Position numbers and translations under genes: made by a program
The notes under the pieces: generated by a model
The model's input: only the letters and a program-made list of their open reading frames with translations
Told to the model about the DNA's origin: nothing
The model's database searches: none
Shown: piece by piece, positions 1,536 through 11,710 of the stretch
How the letters are laid out: the number at the start of each line of letters is the position of its first letter
How positions within the stretch are numbered: position 1 is the first letter of the stretch
Assembly (NCBI RefSeq): GCF_988242995.1
Contig: NZ_OZ547043.1
Length of the DNA: 64,000 nt
Reading direction: 5' to 3' (one strand)

Positions 1536-2408
1536 ATGAATCCGTCTGATGCCATTGAGGCAATTGAAAAACCGCTCTCCTCCCTGCCTTACTCACTTTC
1601 CCGTCACATCCTGGAACATCTGCGCAAACTCACCAGTCACGAACCCGTGCCTGGCATTATGGGTAAAAGCGGGGCCGGTAAATCCTCACTCTGTAATGCG
1701 CTGTTTCAGGGGGAGGTCACCCCGGTCAGTGATGTTCACGCCGGCCCCCGGGAAGTGCAGCGCTTCCGTCTGAATGGCCATGGTCACAGCATGGTTATCA
1801 CTGACCTGCCCGGGGTGGGCGAGAGCCGGGACAGGGATGCAGAGTATGAAGCCCTGTACCGTGACATTCTGCTCGAACTGGACCTGGTACTGTGGCTGAT
1901 TAAAGCCGATGACCGTGCCCTGTCTGTGGATGAGTATTTCTGGCGACACATCCTGCACCGGGGACATCAGCGGGTACTGTTTGTGGTGATGCAGGCCGAT
2001 AAAACGGAGCCCTGCCATGAATGGGATATGGCCGGTATTCAGCCTTCTCCCGCACAGGCACAGAACATTCGCGAAAAAACGGAGGCGGTATTCCGTCTGT
2101 TCCGGCCCGTACATCGGGTTGTTGCCGTATCGGCCCGCACCGGCTGGGAACTGGATACGCTGGTCAGTGCGCTCATGACAGCACTTCCCGACCATGCCGC
2201 CAGTCCCCTGATGACCCGCCTGCAGGACGAGCTGCGCACGGAGTCTGTCCGGTCTCAGGCCCGTGAACAGTTTACCGGTGCGGTGGACCGGATATTTGAC
2301 ACGGCGGAGAGCGTCTGCATTGCCTCTGTTGCACGCACGGTTCTGCGCGCCGTCCGTGACTCGGTGGTCTCTGTTGCCCGCGCGGTATGGAACTGGATTT
2401 TCTTCTGA
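1536..2408 (+). CDS. yeeP: YeeP/YkfA/YfjP-family P-loop GTPase, apparently intact
   Basis: Walker A GKSGAGKSS near N-terminus and DLPG motif; conserved lead gene of CP4-type island modules; start taken at MNPSD inside ORF 1497..2408. Confidence 0.7.
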   Translation: MNPSDAIEAIEKPLSSLPYSLSRHILEHLRKLTSHEPVPGIMGKSGAGKSSLCNALFQGEVTPVSDVHAGPREVQRFRLNGHGHSMVITDLPGVGESRDRDAEYEALYRDILLELDLVLWLIKADDRALSVDEYFWRHILHRGHQRVLFVVMQADKTEPCHEWDMAGIQPSPAQAQNIREKTEAVFRLFRPVHRVVAVSARTGWELDTLVSALMTALPDHAASPLMTRLQDELRTESVRSQAREQFTGAVDRIFDTAESVCIASVARTVLRAVRDSVVSVARAVWNWIFF

Positions 2409-2625
2409 ACCCGGTGGTGATGTACCAGGCTGTTGTTACAGATTTTTAACTCCATGAAAACACTATGCAAACGCAGCCATACCCGGGTTGTCCCCTTGCG
2501 TTGTGTTTCTCAAGTTAATAGAATACATCGATCGTTACTATCATATCGATCGTTATAAACGATCATTTGTAGTAAATGACCTCCTCCGTGGTTGTCATGA
2601 AAATGCGTCTTAGGAAGGTTAAATA

Positions 2626-5022
2626 ATGCACGAAAAGAACATCGCCCTGCTTTGTGATGAAGCCGACCGGCTTTTGCAACTGAATATCAATCTGCTCCGG
2701 CAAATGGTTGATGAGCCGGATGTGTTATCTGACAGTAAGAACGAAAACGGGCTGCTTTTTGATAAACGGAAAGCGCTGAAAAGAATTGAGGAGCTGGAGG
2801 GCGAACAAATCAAAACCGCCCGCAGGGAGATGGTGCTGGCTGTTGTCGGCACGATGAAAGCAGGCAAATCAACCACCATCAACGCCATTGTGGGGCAGGA
2901 AATTCTGCCTAACCGTAACCGCCCCATGACCTCTGTACCGACACTCATCCGCCACGTTCCCGGAAAAACTGAGCCGGTCCTCCATCTGGAACATATTCAG
3001 CCTGTCCGCAATTTATTAATCACACTGCAGGAAAAACTCGCCACCCCGGCAGGACAGCAAGTCGCACAGACCCTGCTGCAAACCGGGGATACCCGTGAAC
3101 TGCTGGATATTCTGACGGATGATGGCTGGCTCAAAAATGAATACCACGGGGAGGAGGAAATCTTTACCGGACTGGCATCGTTAAACGATCTGGTTCGTCT
3201 TGCTGCGGCAATGGGGAGTGAGTTTCCTTTTGATGAATACGCAGAAGTGCAGAAACTGCCGGTGATCGACGTGGAATTCAGCCATCTGGTGGGGATGGAT
3301 GCATGCCAGGGAACACTCACACTGCTGGATACCCCCGGCCCTAATGAAGCCGGCCAGCCGCAGATGGAAGTGATGATGCGGGATCAACTGCAGAAAGCTT
3401 CTGCGGTTCTGGCAGTGATGGATTACACCCAGATGAACTCAAAAGCGGATGAAGACGTCCGTAAAGAGCTTAATGCCATTGCGGACGTATCAGTTGGCCG
3501 CCTGTTTGTGCTGGTCAATAAATTTGATGAGAAAGACCGCAATGGCGATGGGGCAGATGCCGTACGCCAGAAAGTTCCGGCAATGCTGAACAGCGATGTG
3601 CTGCCCGCCTCCCGCGTTTATCCCGGATCCTCACGCCAGGCATACCTGGCTAACCGTGCGCTTCATGAGTTACGGAAAAACGGAACCCTTCCTGTTGATG
3701 AAGCCTGGGTCGATGATTTTGTCAGGGAAGCTTTCGGTCGCATGAAAAAAGATTACGTCTGTAAAGACAGCGAACTGGCAACTGAAGGGGCAACAGACCT
3801 GTGGGAAGGCTCACTTATCGATCAACTGATAACGGAAGTCATACAGAGTTCCCATTCCAGAGCGGCGGCACTGGCGGTTGATTCTGCCGCCGCAAAACTG
3901 ATGCAGAATGCGGAAAATGTCAGCGAATATCTGTCATTACGCCATCAGGGGCTACAGCAAAGCATTCAGTCACTGCAGGCGCATATCACCAGCCTGCTTG
4001 CGGATATCCGGGAAATCGCGGACTGTCAGGAGCAGGTGACCGCTGATGTCAGAATGGCCATGGAGGAGATCGATGCCAGAACCCGGGAATTACTCACGGG
4101 GGTCTGCACCTCACTGGAAGAGGAACTGAATGACTATTTCAGAACCGGTAAACGCAAAGAACAGCAAATGCTGGAGGAAGAAGACACAGAACAACGAAGG
4201 TCCCGGTCCGGATTATGGGGAAAGATTTATCGATGGTCCGGTATCAATAACCCGGGCTGGGAGGATGACAGGATACGAGTCTTTGATCCGGAAAACCCCG
4301 AGATAACATTAAATAATCGCAGGGAAGCCCTTGAACTGATGACGCAAATCGAATCGACCGTGACCAGCCTGCACAGTGAGGCTGAGGCACAGTTCCGGCC
4401 TGAGCTGGAGAAAATCGTCAGCGGGATTGAAACAGGTTTTCGTGGTACGGCCCTGTATGCGACAGAAAACATCGCCGGACGTATCAATGCCCGCCTGGCG
4501 GATGAGGGCTTCACTGTAAAAATCAGTTTTCCGGCAGTCAGTCAGTTACAGACCCGGCTCGCGGTAAAAACAAATCTGAGTGCGCTTATGGAGGAAAGAA
4601 CGGAGACAGTCACCCGTCGCCGTCGGAAGGATAGCTTCATTGGAAAGATTTGTGGATGGATTGGCACCAAAGAATGGGGATGGGAAAACTATAACGTGGA
4701 TGTGAGCCGCAGTGTTATCAATATCAACAAGGTCAGGAAGGAGGTGATGTCACTGACCCGGGCATATTTCGGGGAGCTGCAGGCATCCATTGAGCAGGAT
4801 ATTAACCAGCCCGTCCGCCAGGAAATCGATGCCTTTTTCTGTACATTCAGGGAGAAAGTTGAACAGCTGCGTAACACGCTGATTCAGAGCTCTGAAGATC
4901 ATAAACGCGATCAGCAGGCGCAGGAACGGCTGACCGGGCGTCTTCAGGCGTTAAATGAAAGAGTTCCTGAGCTCATTACTGACAGTAAGGCGTTAAGGGA
5001 AGAACTGGAGACAATGCTGTGA
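2626..5022 (+). CDS. bacterial dynamin-like GTPase (798 aa), CrfC/YjdA-like
   Basis: G1 P-loop GTMKAGKST (nt 2848..2874), G3 DTPG (3328..3339), G4 NKFD (3517..3528); long helical C-terminal region; RBS GGAAGG upstream of ATG. Confidence 0.8.
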   Translation: MHEKNIALLCDEADRLLQLNINLLRQMVDEPDVLSDSKNENGLLFDKRKALKRIEELEGEQIKTARREMVLAVVGTMKAGKSTTINAIVGQEILPNRNRPMTSVPTLIRHVPGKTEPVLHLEHIQPVRNLLITLQEKLATPAGQQVAQTLLQTGDTRELLDILTDDGWLKNEYHGEEEIFTGLASLNDLVRLAAAMGSEFPFDEYAEVQKLPVIDVEFSHLVGMDACQGTLTLLDTPGPNEAGQPQMEVMMRDQLQKASAVLAVMDYTQMNSKADEDVRKELNAIADVSVGRLFVLVNKFDEKDRNGDGADAVRQKVPAMLNSDVLPASRVYPGSSRQAYLANRALHELRKNGTLPVDEAWVDDFVREAFGRMKKDYVCKDSELATEGATDLWEGSLIDQLITEVIQSSHSRAAALAVDSAAAKLMQNAENVSEYLSLRHQGLQQSIQSLQAHITSLLADIREIADCQEQVTADVRMAMEEIDARTRELLTGVCTSLEEELNDYFRTGKRKEQQMLEEEDTEQRRSRSGLWGKIYRWSGINNPGWEDDRIRVFDPENPEITLNNRREALELMTQIESTVTSLHSEAEAQFRPELEKIVSGIETGFRGTALYATENIAGRINARLADEGFTVKISFPAVSQLQTRLAVKTNLSALMEERTETVTRRRRKDSFIGKICGWIGTKEWGWENYNVDVSRSVININKVRKEVMSLTRAYFGELQASIEQDINQPVRQEIDAFFCTFREKVEQLRNTLIQSSEDHKRDQQAQERLTGRLQALNERVPELITDSKALREELETML

Positions 5023-11057: not shown

Positions 11058-11145
11058 CTCTCCAGAATAGCCTTCTGCTACGGCCTGGTGTTTTCACCAC
11101 GCCACTTTTCCATTTTTATATCTGCATATCAGGAAAATCTTCAGT

Positions 11146-11519
11146 ATGAAAACATTACCTGTATTACCCGGGCAGGCGGCCAGTTCTCGCCCGTCTCCTG
11201 TTGAAATCTGGCAGATACTGCTGTCCCGACTGCTGGACCAGCACTATGGCCTCACACTGAATGACACACCTTTTGCCGATGAACGTGTGATTGAGCAGCA
11301 TATTGAGGCAGGCATTTCACTGTGTGATGCGGTGAACTTTCTCGTGGAAAAATACGCGCTGATGCTACCGACCAGCCGGGATTCAGCGCCTGTACCCGCT
11401 CTCAGTTAATAAACAGCATCGATATCCTCCGGGCTCGCAGGGCGACCGGCCTGATGACCCGCGACAATTACAGAACGGTAAATAACATTACCCTGGGTAA
11501 GTATCCGGAGGCGAAATGA
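11146..11519 (+). pseudogene. cbtA: cbtA (yeeV) toxin gene, frameshifted
   Basis: N-terminal 81 aa match recalled CbtA, then the frame terminates at 11409; the CbtA C-terminus ([39 protein letters not shown]) is encoded in the -1 frame ending at 11519; span is 374 nt, one short of the expected 375. Confidence 0.65.
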
Positions 11520-11710
11520 TGACACTGGAAGCCGACAGCGTTAACGTACAGGCGCTGGATATGGGGCACATTGTCGTTGACATTGATGGTGTTAATATCA
11601 CTGAACTGATTAATAAGGCCGCTGAAAACGGTTATTCACTCCGCGTGGTGGATGACCGTGACTCTACCGAAACACCGGCAACTTATGCCAGCCCTCACCA
11701 GTTGCTGTAA
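11516..11710 (+). CDS. yeeW: YeeW
   Basis: 64-aa ORF whose ATG overlaps the expected cbtA stop; CP4-44 synteny. Confidence 0.65.
   Translation: MMTLEADSVNVQALDMGHIVVDIDGVNITELINKAAENGYSLRVVDDRDSTETPATYASPHQLL

Follow-up and report, generated by a model that had tools for sequence, protein, structure and literature searches.

The DNA analysed here is a 64,000-nt stretch of contig NZ_OZ547043.1 (NCBI RefSeq assembly GCF_988242995.1), hereafter the window. Positions 1-12324 of the window are the right arm of the S88-type allele of the CP4-44 island remnant, an allele of extraintestinal pathogenic Escherichia coli (ExPEC). In this allele, the slot behind a YeeP-family GTPase gene, which in strain K-12 contains flu (agn43, encoding antigen 43, Ag43) and yeeR, holds an operon for a dynamin-like GTPase, a YjcZ/RdcB-family partner and a patatin-like phospholipase, preceded by a predicted Dam/OxyR methylation switch of the agn43 type. 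The predicted switch before the operon is the new part, and the island polymorphism itself is ordinary. We give the whole explanation, comprising an S88-type CP4-44 allele, an exchanged cargo, a predicted Dam/OxyR switch and a function for the operon, a probability of about three in four; the function of the operon is its weakest step.

The window carries the CP4-44 locus with a different cargo from K-12

The initial annotation had described a CP4-44-like island. Open reading frame (ORF) listing and Pfam scans recovered all the genes that it had named, all on the + strand, as are the other features given below unless otherwise stated. The region is more than CP4-44-like, being the orthologous CP4-44 locus itself. 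It occupies the same chromosomal site as in K-12, with cobU upstream (S88 record) and yoeF, tmaR, yeeA, sbmC and dacD downstream (window and K-12 map); in the window, Pfam scans identified the downstream genes as a PduV-like fragment (yoeF), DUF496 (tmaR, also yeeX), yeeA, sbmC and dacD. The right arm is collinear with that of K-12 and 99.1% identical to it. Compared with S88 (NC_011742.1) by blastn, the window had two base differences across the first 19 kb. The S88 island occupies the whole cobU-tmaR interval, ~32 kb, and the window starts within it; the annotated CP4-44 of K-12 is 12.7 kb long and lies in the same interval.

From cobU to tmaR, the S88 and K-12 records list neither an integrase, of the P4 family or other, nor a tRNA; the island is a remnant. 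In strain A22, which has no island (locus extract L007, 1-6183), the pdu operon is complete and its terminal gene, pduV, adjoins tmaR. This indicates that yoeF (12325-12507, Pfam PduV-EutP) is a 3' remnant of pduV and that CP4-44 sits in a cbi-pdu deletion scar; an island has taken the place of the cbi-pdu region flanked by cobU and tmaR. Homology to the island-free strain starts at 12325, which places the island border at 12324/12325, with yoeF on its chromosomal side.

Against K-12, blastn aligned window 1856-2411 with the yeeP fragment (96.2% identity) and 9879-16500 with yeeS through dacD (99.1%), and found nothing alignable in 2412-9878, with no flu or yeeR there. The homology breakpoints lie at 2411 and 9879, and 7.5 kb in the window stand in place of the 5.1-kb isrC-flu-yeeR segment that K-12 CP4-44 carries between the yeeP pseudogene and yeeS. 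The yeeS-yeeT-cbeA-cbtA-yeeW-yoeF arm is common to both alleles, and everything between the stop codon of the GTPase gene and the start of yeeS differs. The gene content is thus not that of K-12 CP4-44, and both Pfam and blastn bear out the earlier proposal that a dynamin/patatin operon and two small secreted proteins take the place of flu and yeeR. The YeeP-family GTPase gene (1536-2408, Pfam MMR_HSR1) had also been correctly called intact: it encodes 290 aa with a P-loop (GKSGAGKS), a DxxG motif (DLPG) and no internal stop, whereas yeeP of K-12 is annotated as a pseudogene that retains only the last 556 nt. The comparison with K-12 CP4-44, CP4-57 and CP4-6 and the survey of the slot in other strains, both suggested with the initial annotation, showed different slot contents.

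The dynamin operon is preceded by a predicted agn43-type switch

agn43 is the textbook E. coli case of epigenetic phase variation by Dam and OxyR. [quoted passage not shown] In the window, the gap between the GTPase and dynamin genes is 217 nt long and contains a sigma-70 promoter-like sequence (2496-2524), in which the -35 element TTGCGT (2496-2501) and the -10 element TAGAAT (2519-2524) are separated by a 17-nt spacer. Directly downstream of the -10 element lies the predicted OxyR-binding, Dam-methylation switch (2527-2564), with GATC sites at 2530, 2548 and 2561 (spacings of 18 and 13 nt), all three within 35 nt and inside the length of one OxyR site. The OxyR consensus is ATAGnTnnnAnCTAT-n7-ATAGnTnnnAnCTAT, reportedly from work by Toledano et al. 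in 1994. Scored against this consensus, window 2527-2563 matched at 16 of 20 positions, compared with 14 of 20 for K-12 agn43; 10 of 2000 random 160-nt windows scored at least 14. GATC density was lower in the island (1.65 per kb) than in the whole window (3.47 per kb). Elsewhere in the window, three GATC sites fall within 40 nt of each other at just one place, 27649-27666, inside a coding sequence that we take to be hisB.

The layout of this promoter-like sequence matches that of the agn43 promoter. Alignments with K-12, AST46, LP50-1, Citrobacter and Enterobacter showed that a core of ~50 nt is common to the window and the yeeP-flu gaps of K-12, AST46 and LP50-1 (TAATAGAAT..CGATC..CTAT..TAT.GATCGTT......GATC), with surroundings that could not be aligned. 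Among the three types of switch, those before agn43, before the dynamin operon and before the small-protein genes of Citrobacter, the core was 78-92% identical and the flanks 15-48%, and the -35 and -10 elements with their 17-nt spacer were kept in all three. A pattern built from the core occurred once in the 64 kb, with 0 occurrences expected by chance.

Among GTDB species representatives, the pattern was found only in Enterobacter wuhouensis, Citrobacter braakii and C. amalonaticus. In Enterobacter and Citrobacter the switch likewise follows a YeeP-family GTPase gene and precedes genes for two small secreted proteins, DUF932 and antirestriction; the signal-peptide proteins behind it have 154 and 157 aa in C. 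braakii (L009, 3977-5015) and E. wuhouensis (L008, 4540-5578). A fragment akin to the 157-aa protein was also seen in E. coli islands of the AST46 and CFT073 types. In 120 metagenome loci, which were picked by a pattern that itself requires the GATC sites, the switch always followed a GTPase gene wherever upstream sequence existed, and the cargo behind it was Ag43 in 80; a further 35 had the dynamin operon, and two had a pair of small secreted proteins. The spacing between the first and second GATC sites in these loci correlated perfectly with the cargo, being 18 nt with the dynamin operon and 19 nt with Ag43. The switch and the 5' end of the dynamin gene occurred together in 1978 of the 5426 complete E. 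coli genomes. All elements of the switch were retained in the copy on the pathogenicity island (PAI) PAI-aspV of CFT073 and in the most divergent E. coli copy, which lies at another locus and was found by homology alone.

Taken together, the agn43-type promoter, the GATC sites, the OxyR match and the conservation of the core lead us to predict Dam/OxyR phase variation of the dynamin operon. In the OFF state, OxyR would be bound and the GATC sites unmethylated; in the ON state, the sites would be methylated and OxyR excluded, as in the control of Ag43, and the operon would switch heritably between the two. A dynamin operon behind an agn43-type methylation switch has apparently not been reported before: our literature search turned up no link between the operon and OxyR, GATC sites or phase variation. 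No unmethylated GATC sites are given in a methylome paper on sequence type 131 (ST131), supplements included, and a paper on O111 contains nothing on the topic.

Several observations weigh against this prediction. The requirement for GATC sites in the search pattern lessens what the metagenome loci can say, and within E. coli the 217-nt intergenic region is ~98% conserved over its full length, so that comparison within the species cannot tell functional from neutral conservation. In addition, a transcriptome difference in strain MP1 has been given another cause. Of all gene clusters, the block with the dynamin operon differed most strongly between two isogenic derivatives of MP1, whatever the medium; the authors call the regulation of such dynamins undescribed and attribute the difference to a prophage, not to phase variation (PMC12922286). 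If the MP1 copies carry the switch, fixed ON and OFF states would explain the MP1 difference as well, which is our reading and not that of the authors.

The agn43-like core could instead be an inherited relic of the original promoter of the slot, with the operon constitutive or otherwise controlled. The uninformative conservation of the GATC sites within E. coli agrees with such a relic, as do the homologous operons of Yersinia and Vibrio, which have no GATC cluster, and those of two genera in which a WYL regulator is found instead. Among the operons of other genera that we examined, none has the switch, which implies that the switch belongs to the island slot and not to the operon. A relic would not readily account for flanks that have diverged to 15-48% around a 50-nt core of 78-92% identity in which three GATC sites, the -10 element and the 17-nt spacer are kept, nor for an OxyR-consensus match that exceeds that of the proven agn43 site in an island otherwise poor in GATC. 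We therefore consider a relic improbable and favour a working switch.

The operon encodes dynamin-like, RdcB-like and patatin-like proteins

The operon consists of three translationally coupled genes, in which the dynamin stop overlaps the start of the RdcB-like gene by 4 nt, and the RdcB-like stop overlaps the patatin start by the same length. The first gene (2626-5022, Pfam Dynamin_N) encodes a 798-aa dynamin-like GTPase with the motifs GTMKAGKS, DTPG and NKFD, a paralog of RdcA/CrfC (YjdA). Its score with the NCBIfam CrfC model was 558 bits, under the cut-off of 1146, so it is not an ortholog of CrfC/RdcA; identity to K-12 RdcA was 46% over residues 33-454 and ~15% in the C-terminal half. 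The part of the gene encoding this half contains an internal direct repeat (4219-4262 and 4642-4685, 70% identical), which encodes two GK(I)(Y/C)xW..G..W motifs. The second gene (5019-5924) encodes a 301-aa partner of the YjcZ/RdcB family (Pfam YjcZ, E = 4e-70) that is 31% identical to K-12 RdcB and adds a middle member to the dynamin/patatin pair named in the initial annotation. The third (5921-6991, Pfam Patatin) encodes a 356-aa patatin-like phospholipase with the GGG oxyanion, GVSIG (Ser42) and DGG motifs. A terminator-like hairpin with a U-run (7003-7032, -19 kcal/mol, z = -3.9) ends the module, and homology of the module with the AST46 island stops at 7076.

The three-gene operon is conserved across Gammaproteobacteria and was found, with overlapping stops and starts, in Vibrio, Yersinia, Pectobacterium, Plesiomonas, Enterobacter and Oceanospirillaceae. 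Control of defence systems is a common role of WYL regulators, and a WYL-domain gene lies immediately before the operon in V. vulnificus and E. asburiae (L136, 3682-4650; L142, 4744-5619). The V. vulnificus operon is located beside bacteriophage exclusion (BREX) genes on a relaxase-bearing element, and the order in E. asburiae is integrase, WYL, operon and Mrr/PDDEXK nucleases. The Plesiomonas operon adjoins an integrase gene, and that of Pectobacterium ends a CP4-like backbone. These neighbours (BREX, Mrr, WYL and integrases) point to a role in phage or membrane defence, and we put the chance of a membrane-acting defence role at roughly one third. RdcA and RdcB activate the membrane enzyme DgcE by direct contact, for which GTP hydrolysis is needed (PMC6510439). 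[quoted passage not shown] Phase variation would then confine the cost of a defence system to part of the population. A defence role has also been speculated for the dynamin operon itself (PMC12922286).

On the other side, a PADLOC scan detected no known system (best LeoBC match partial at 2.7e-5, phospholipase effector at 1e-4, no LeoA), we found no paper that ties a dynamin plus a patatin to defence experimentally, and the operons of Yersinia and Oceanospirillaceae are placed among core genes. These points tell against defence, and the last of them would fit a second signalling system of the RdcA/RdcB type, acting in cyclic di-GMP signalling, biofilm formation or lipid remodelling through a cellular partner. 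The same could be said of the full-length similarity to CrfC/RdcA (558 bits), the 31% identity to RdcB, the activation of a membrane enzyme by RdcA/RdcB, and the biofilm and aggregation factor Ag43 as the alternative cargo of the slot. Such a system would leave unaccounted for the patatin lipase, which is invariably linked and has no counterpart in the rdcAB operon, and the mobile or defence-type neighbours in several genera, and it sits poorly with the ~15% identity of the C-terminal half to RdcA and a score below the ortholog cut-off. We judge a signalling system without defence about as improbable as the relic promoter, and keep to the tentative assignment of a membrane-acting defence.

The slot is polymorphic and its mosaic probably arose by recombination

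The arrangement in the window is ordinary. At least 80% of window 1-13000 was present in one place in 1752 of the 5426 complete E. coli genomes, and the arrangement is thus common and annotated in about one third of them; the median number of matching places per genome was five. Coverage of at least 80% was also reached by a K-12-type query in 1529 genomes and by an LP50-1-type query in 1630, counts that include paralogous islands and are not locus frequencies. Alleles at the locus, drawn from a spread sample of the ranking (5,423 genomes) plus selected loci, were of the dynamin type, an ST131-type variant, the Ag43 type, the K-12 deletion type, partial deletions and no island.

The Ag43-type allele of LP50-1 has the order GTPase, agn43, an 838-aa YeeR-like gene, IrmA, DUF905, DUF932, antirestriction and yeeS. 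Mapped by alignment, the K-12 allele is this allele minus 3.36 kb (K-12 extract L002, 16300/16303; LP50-1 extract L005, 9060-12416). The deletion runs from the 3' end of the YeeR-like gene through IrmA, DUF905, DUF932 and antirestriction into the first bases of yeeS, and yeeR of K-12 is the 5' two-thirds of the 838-aa gene. K-12 CP4-44 thus lacks DUF932 and antirestriction because of a deletion relative to a fuller Ag43-type allele, and with its truncated yeeP it is a degraded and less representative allele.

In the ST131-type allele of AH19K002 (L006, 3491-9143), a cluster of TonB-receptor and ATP-binding cassette (ABC) transporter genes is inserted at window 1421-1441, between a gene for a 383-aa protein and the GTPase gene, and the GTPase gene has an internal 430-nt deletion corresponding to window 1732-2161. 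The transporter proteins recur in CFT073 PAI-aspV. We considered a four-gamete argument based on a yeeP truncation common to K-12 and the ST131 type and rejected it, as blastn showed separate events, with K-12 cut at 1856; one argument for exchange is thereby lost.

Paralogous islands elsewhere carry other combinations. CFT073 PAI-aspV has the dynamin operon with other small genes, and in AST46 and O157-type islands, Ag43 or Cah and the dynamin operon stand in tandem. In these tandem islands (AST46, L004, 5062-12895), the 110 nt between agn43 or cah and the dynamin operon contain no GATC site and nothing that clearly resembles a terminator, and transcription from the agn43 switch may continue into the operon.

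The module edges in the window are at 2411/2412, 2622, 7076/7077 and 8303/8304, and no flanking repeats were found at them. A 3' remnant of a DUF905 gene (8304-8356) marks the junction of cargo and backbone in an alignment to LP50-1, in which window 8304-13000 corresponds to L005 10846-15539 and the DUF905 coding sequence to L005 10665-10898. Given the lack of flanking repeats and the severed DUF905 gene, the mosaic looks like the outcome of recombination between islands plus deletions and not of cassettes; site-specific cassette machinery is not evident at the slot. The mosaic probably arose by homologous recombination between the several paralogous islands of a genome, together with illegitimate deletions, and this recombination would use the conserved GTPase and DUF932-to-toxin segments of the islands. 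The cargo-exchange hotspot proposed in the initial annotation is therefore supported by the alternative alleles, in the form of recombination among island copies rather than cassette exchange.

That K-12 and S88 received different elements by independent insertions at one site is very unlikely. The lower identity of the GTPase segment (96.2%, against 99.1% for the right arm) and the different size and left-hand content of the islands (~32 kb in S88, 12.7 kb in K-12) might suggest it. The right junction, consisting of yeeW, a DUF957 fragment, an IS66 fragment and the pduV remnant, is nevertheless shared at 99%, and such a degenerate scar is unlikely to arise twice; moreover, LP50-1 has at this locus an allele that joins an intact GTPase gene and Ag43 to the same right arm. 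One island with an exchanged cargo remains the better account.

Small signal-peptide proteins and flanking genes

Two small genes follow the operon. The first (7325-7810; RefSeq start in S88, 7127) encodes a signal-peptide protein and is interrupted by TGA at 7613-7615, where S88 has TGG (Trp), one of the two differences from S88. The stop truncates the protein just before a conserved GCKAHTCGW loop. The RefSeq product from 7127 has 227 aa with one signal-like segment, and most homologs have 160 aa and start at the internal Met at 7325; with these homologs and its own signal peptide, 7325 is probably the true start. The family occurs only in E. coli and Shigella. Its resemblance to Ivy is weak (NCBIfam E = 0.01; Ivy chains in PDB by single-sequence and profile searches, E = 0.25-1; CKAHTCG aligned to CKPHDCG). 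Given the weak PDB E-values and an AlphaFold model too poor to use (predicted local distance difference test, pLDDT, 42), we retain an identity with Ivy as a weak lead. The second small gene (7826-8236) encodes a cysteine-containing signal-peptide protein of 136 aa, which had no Pfam or NCBIfam match and shared 35% identity with a small protein that occupies the matching place in the AST46 island. Judged by eye, the signal-peptide-like N-termini of the two proteins end in AEA and ATA. The second gene is followed by a strong hairpin resembling an intrinsic terminator (8378-8407, -24.5 kcal/mol, z = -6.2), located before DUF932. With one hairpin after the patatin gene and a stronger one here, the small genes may have transcripts separate from that of the operon, which counts against placing the entire cargo under the predicted switch.

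The presence of a dynamin-like protein in an island common in ExPEC, the adjoining small secreted proteins and the occurrence of IrmA (in Pfam, an interleukin receptor mimic) in the equivalent slot of Ag43-type islands could suggest a virulence or vesiculation factor like LeoABC of enterotoxigenic E. coli, aiding secretion of the small periplasmic proteins, but this is the least likely of the alternatives, as the PADLOC matches to LeoBC are weak and partial, the small-protein module is separable (CFT073, AST46 and other genera have a different one or none), and one small gene is broken in the window strain.

Upstream of the GTPase gene, the gene at 301-1452 encodes the 383-aa protein mentioned above, which is hypothetical in S88 and had no Pfam, NCBIfam or PADLOC match. 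It often occurs with the GTPase gene; several islands and metagenome contigs have it right before a GTPase gene of the YeeP family.

The backbone begins with DUF932 of the YafZ/YfjQ family (8457-9278, Pfam E = 5e-52; deleted in K-12 CP4-44), followed by an antirestriction gene of the YafX/YfjX family (9360-9839, Pfam Antirestrict; absent in K-12 CP4-44), the gene yeeS for a RadC-like JAB protein (9855-10331, Pfam RadC), within which K-12 homology resumes at 9879, and yeeT (10394-10615, assigned to DUF987 by Pfam). The antitoxin gene cbeA (10689-11057, Pfam CbeA and S88 annotation) is intact. The initial annotation also listed the toxin gene cbtA, and the gene is indeed present at 11146-11519 (Pfam CbtA); alignment with K-12 cbtA showed that one nucleotide is missing near codon 73 and that the frame is shifted after about codon 72, which makes it a pseudogene, as also annotated in S88. 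The type IV toxin-antitoxin pair CbtA/CbeA is thus defunct in both the window strain and S88. The second difference from S88, a missense change at 11336, falls in this pseudogene. Next comes yeeW (11516-11710), an N-terminal fragment of DUF5983 (DUF5983_N and S88 annotation). The degenerate right end (11744-12324, no strand assigned) comprises fragments of DUF957 (11744-11836) and of an IS66-type transposase (~12086-12262), both from the S88 annotation; the sequence at 12086-12262 is ~95-99% identical to IS66-family elements on many plasmids.

Implications of the predicted switch

Genomes with the dynamin module behind the switch include S88, CFT073 (PAI-aspV) and ST131-labelled strains. If the prediction is true, a second unrelated operon under a diverged agn43-type switch would enlarge the Dam/OxyR regulon in widespread ExPEC, and GATC mutants locked ON or locked OFF would make a bacterial dynamin-like system accessible to genetics. 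A wider reading is conceivable, if on balance doubtful: the slot after the YeeP-family GTPase gene may be a portable epigenetic ON/OFF site with captured unrelated cargoes, which in about one third of E. coli would drive a dynamin-like/RdcB-like/patatin module, a hitherto unrecognised membrane-acting system against phage or lysis that only some cells of the population express, as bet-hedging immunity. It would also explain the "prophage-induced" gene block of MP1, and differences in the expression of the block between clonal derivatives may mirror phase state and not the manipulated variable.

Comparison with known systems

The patatin of the window has the fold and Ser-Asp dyad in common with CapV of the cyclic-oligonucleotide-based anti-phage signalling system (CBASS). 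It differs in scoring 18.9 bits with CBASS_lipase against a cut-off of 200, and no cyclase or nucleotide-sensing gene lies nearby. The anti-phage system Eleos, also called "Dynamins" (LeoA, LeoBC), and DynA of Bacillus subtilis likewise feature a bacterial dynamin-like protein whose setting is of a mobile or defence type, but the LeoA/LeoBC architecture is absent from the window, where the partners are YjcZ-like and patatin. Closer are RdcA and RdcB (YjdA/CrfC and YjcZ), an overlapping pair of a dynamin-like and a YjcZ-family gene, with identities of 46% and 31%; the pair in the window is a paralog with a diverged C-terminal half, is borne on an island and has a third coupled gene, for patatin.

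Among the islands, CP4-6 and CP4-57 share the backbone order GTPase (ykfA/yfjP), DUF932 (yafZ/yfjQ), antirestriction (yafX/yfjX), RadC (ykfG/yfjY), DUF987, antitoxin and toxin. They differ in retaining tRNA-adjacent ends and in having variable genes between DUF932 and antirestriction, a position that is empty in the window. In both, DUF932 directly follows the GTPase gene after a gap of 91 nt, and hence the slot is empty. K-12 CP4-44 has the same site, a right arm of 99.1% identity and a YeeP-family GTPase gene to the left of the slot, followed by a promoter with three GATC sites. There the cargo is flu-yeeR and cbtA is intact, whereas the window has the dynamin-like/RdcB-like/patatin operon with two small proteins, a frameshifted cbtA and, unlike K-12, DUF932 and antirestriction.

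The agn43 switch resembles the predicted one of the window in its TAGAAT -10 element, the 17-nt spacer to the -35 element, the three GATC sites in an OxyR-consensus site and its position right after a YeeP-family GTPase gene. It differs in the spacing of the first two GATC sites (19 nt, compared with 18 nt in the window) and in the length of the leader (~190 nt, compared with ~60 nt in the window). The upstream and leader sequences of the window copy are not homologous to those of agn43, and a Rfam scan of window 1-13000 gave no match, in the leader or to IsrC. Finally, agn43 drives an autotransporter, whereas the window copy precedes what its sequence suggests is an operon of cytoplasmic or membrane enzymes.

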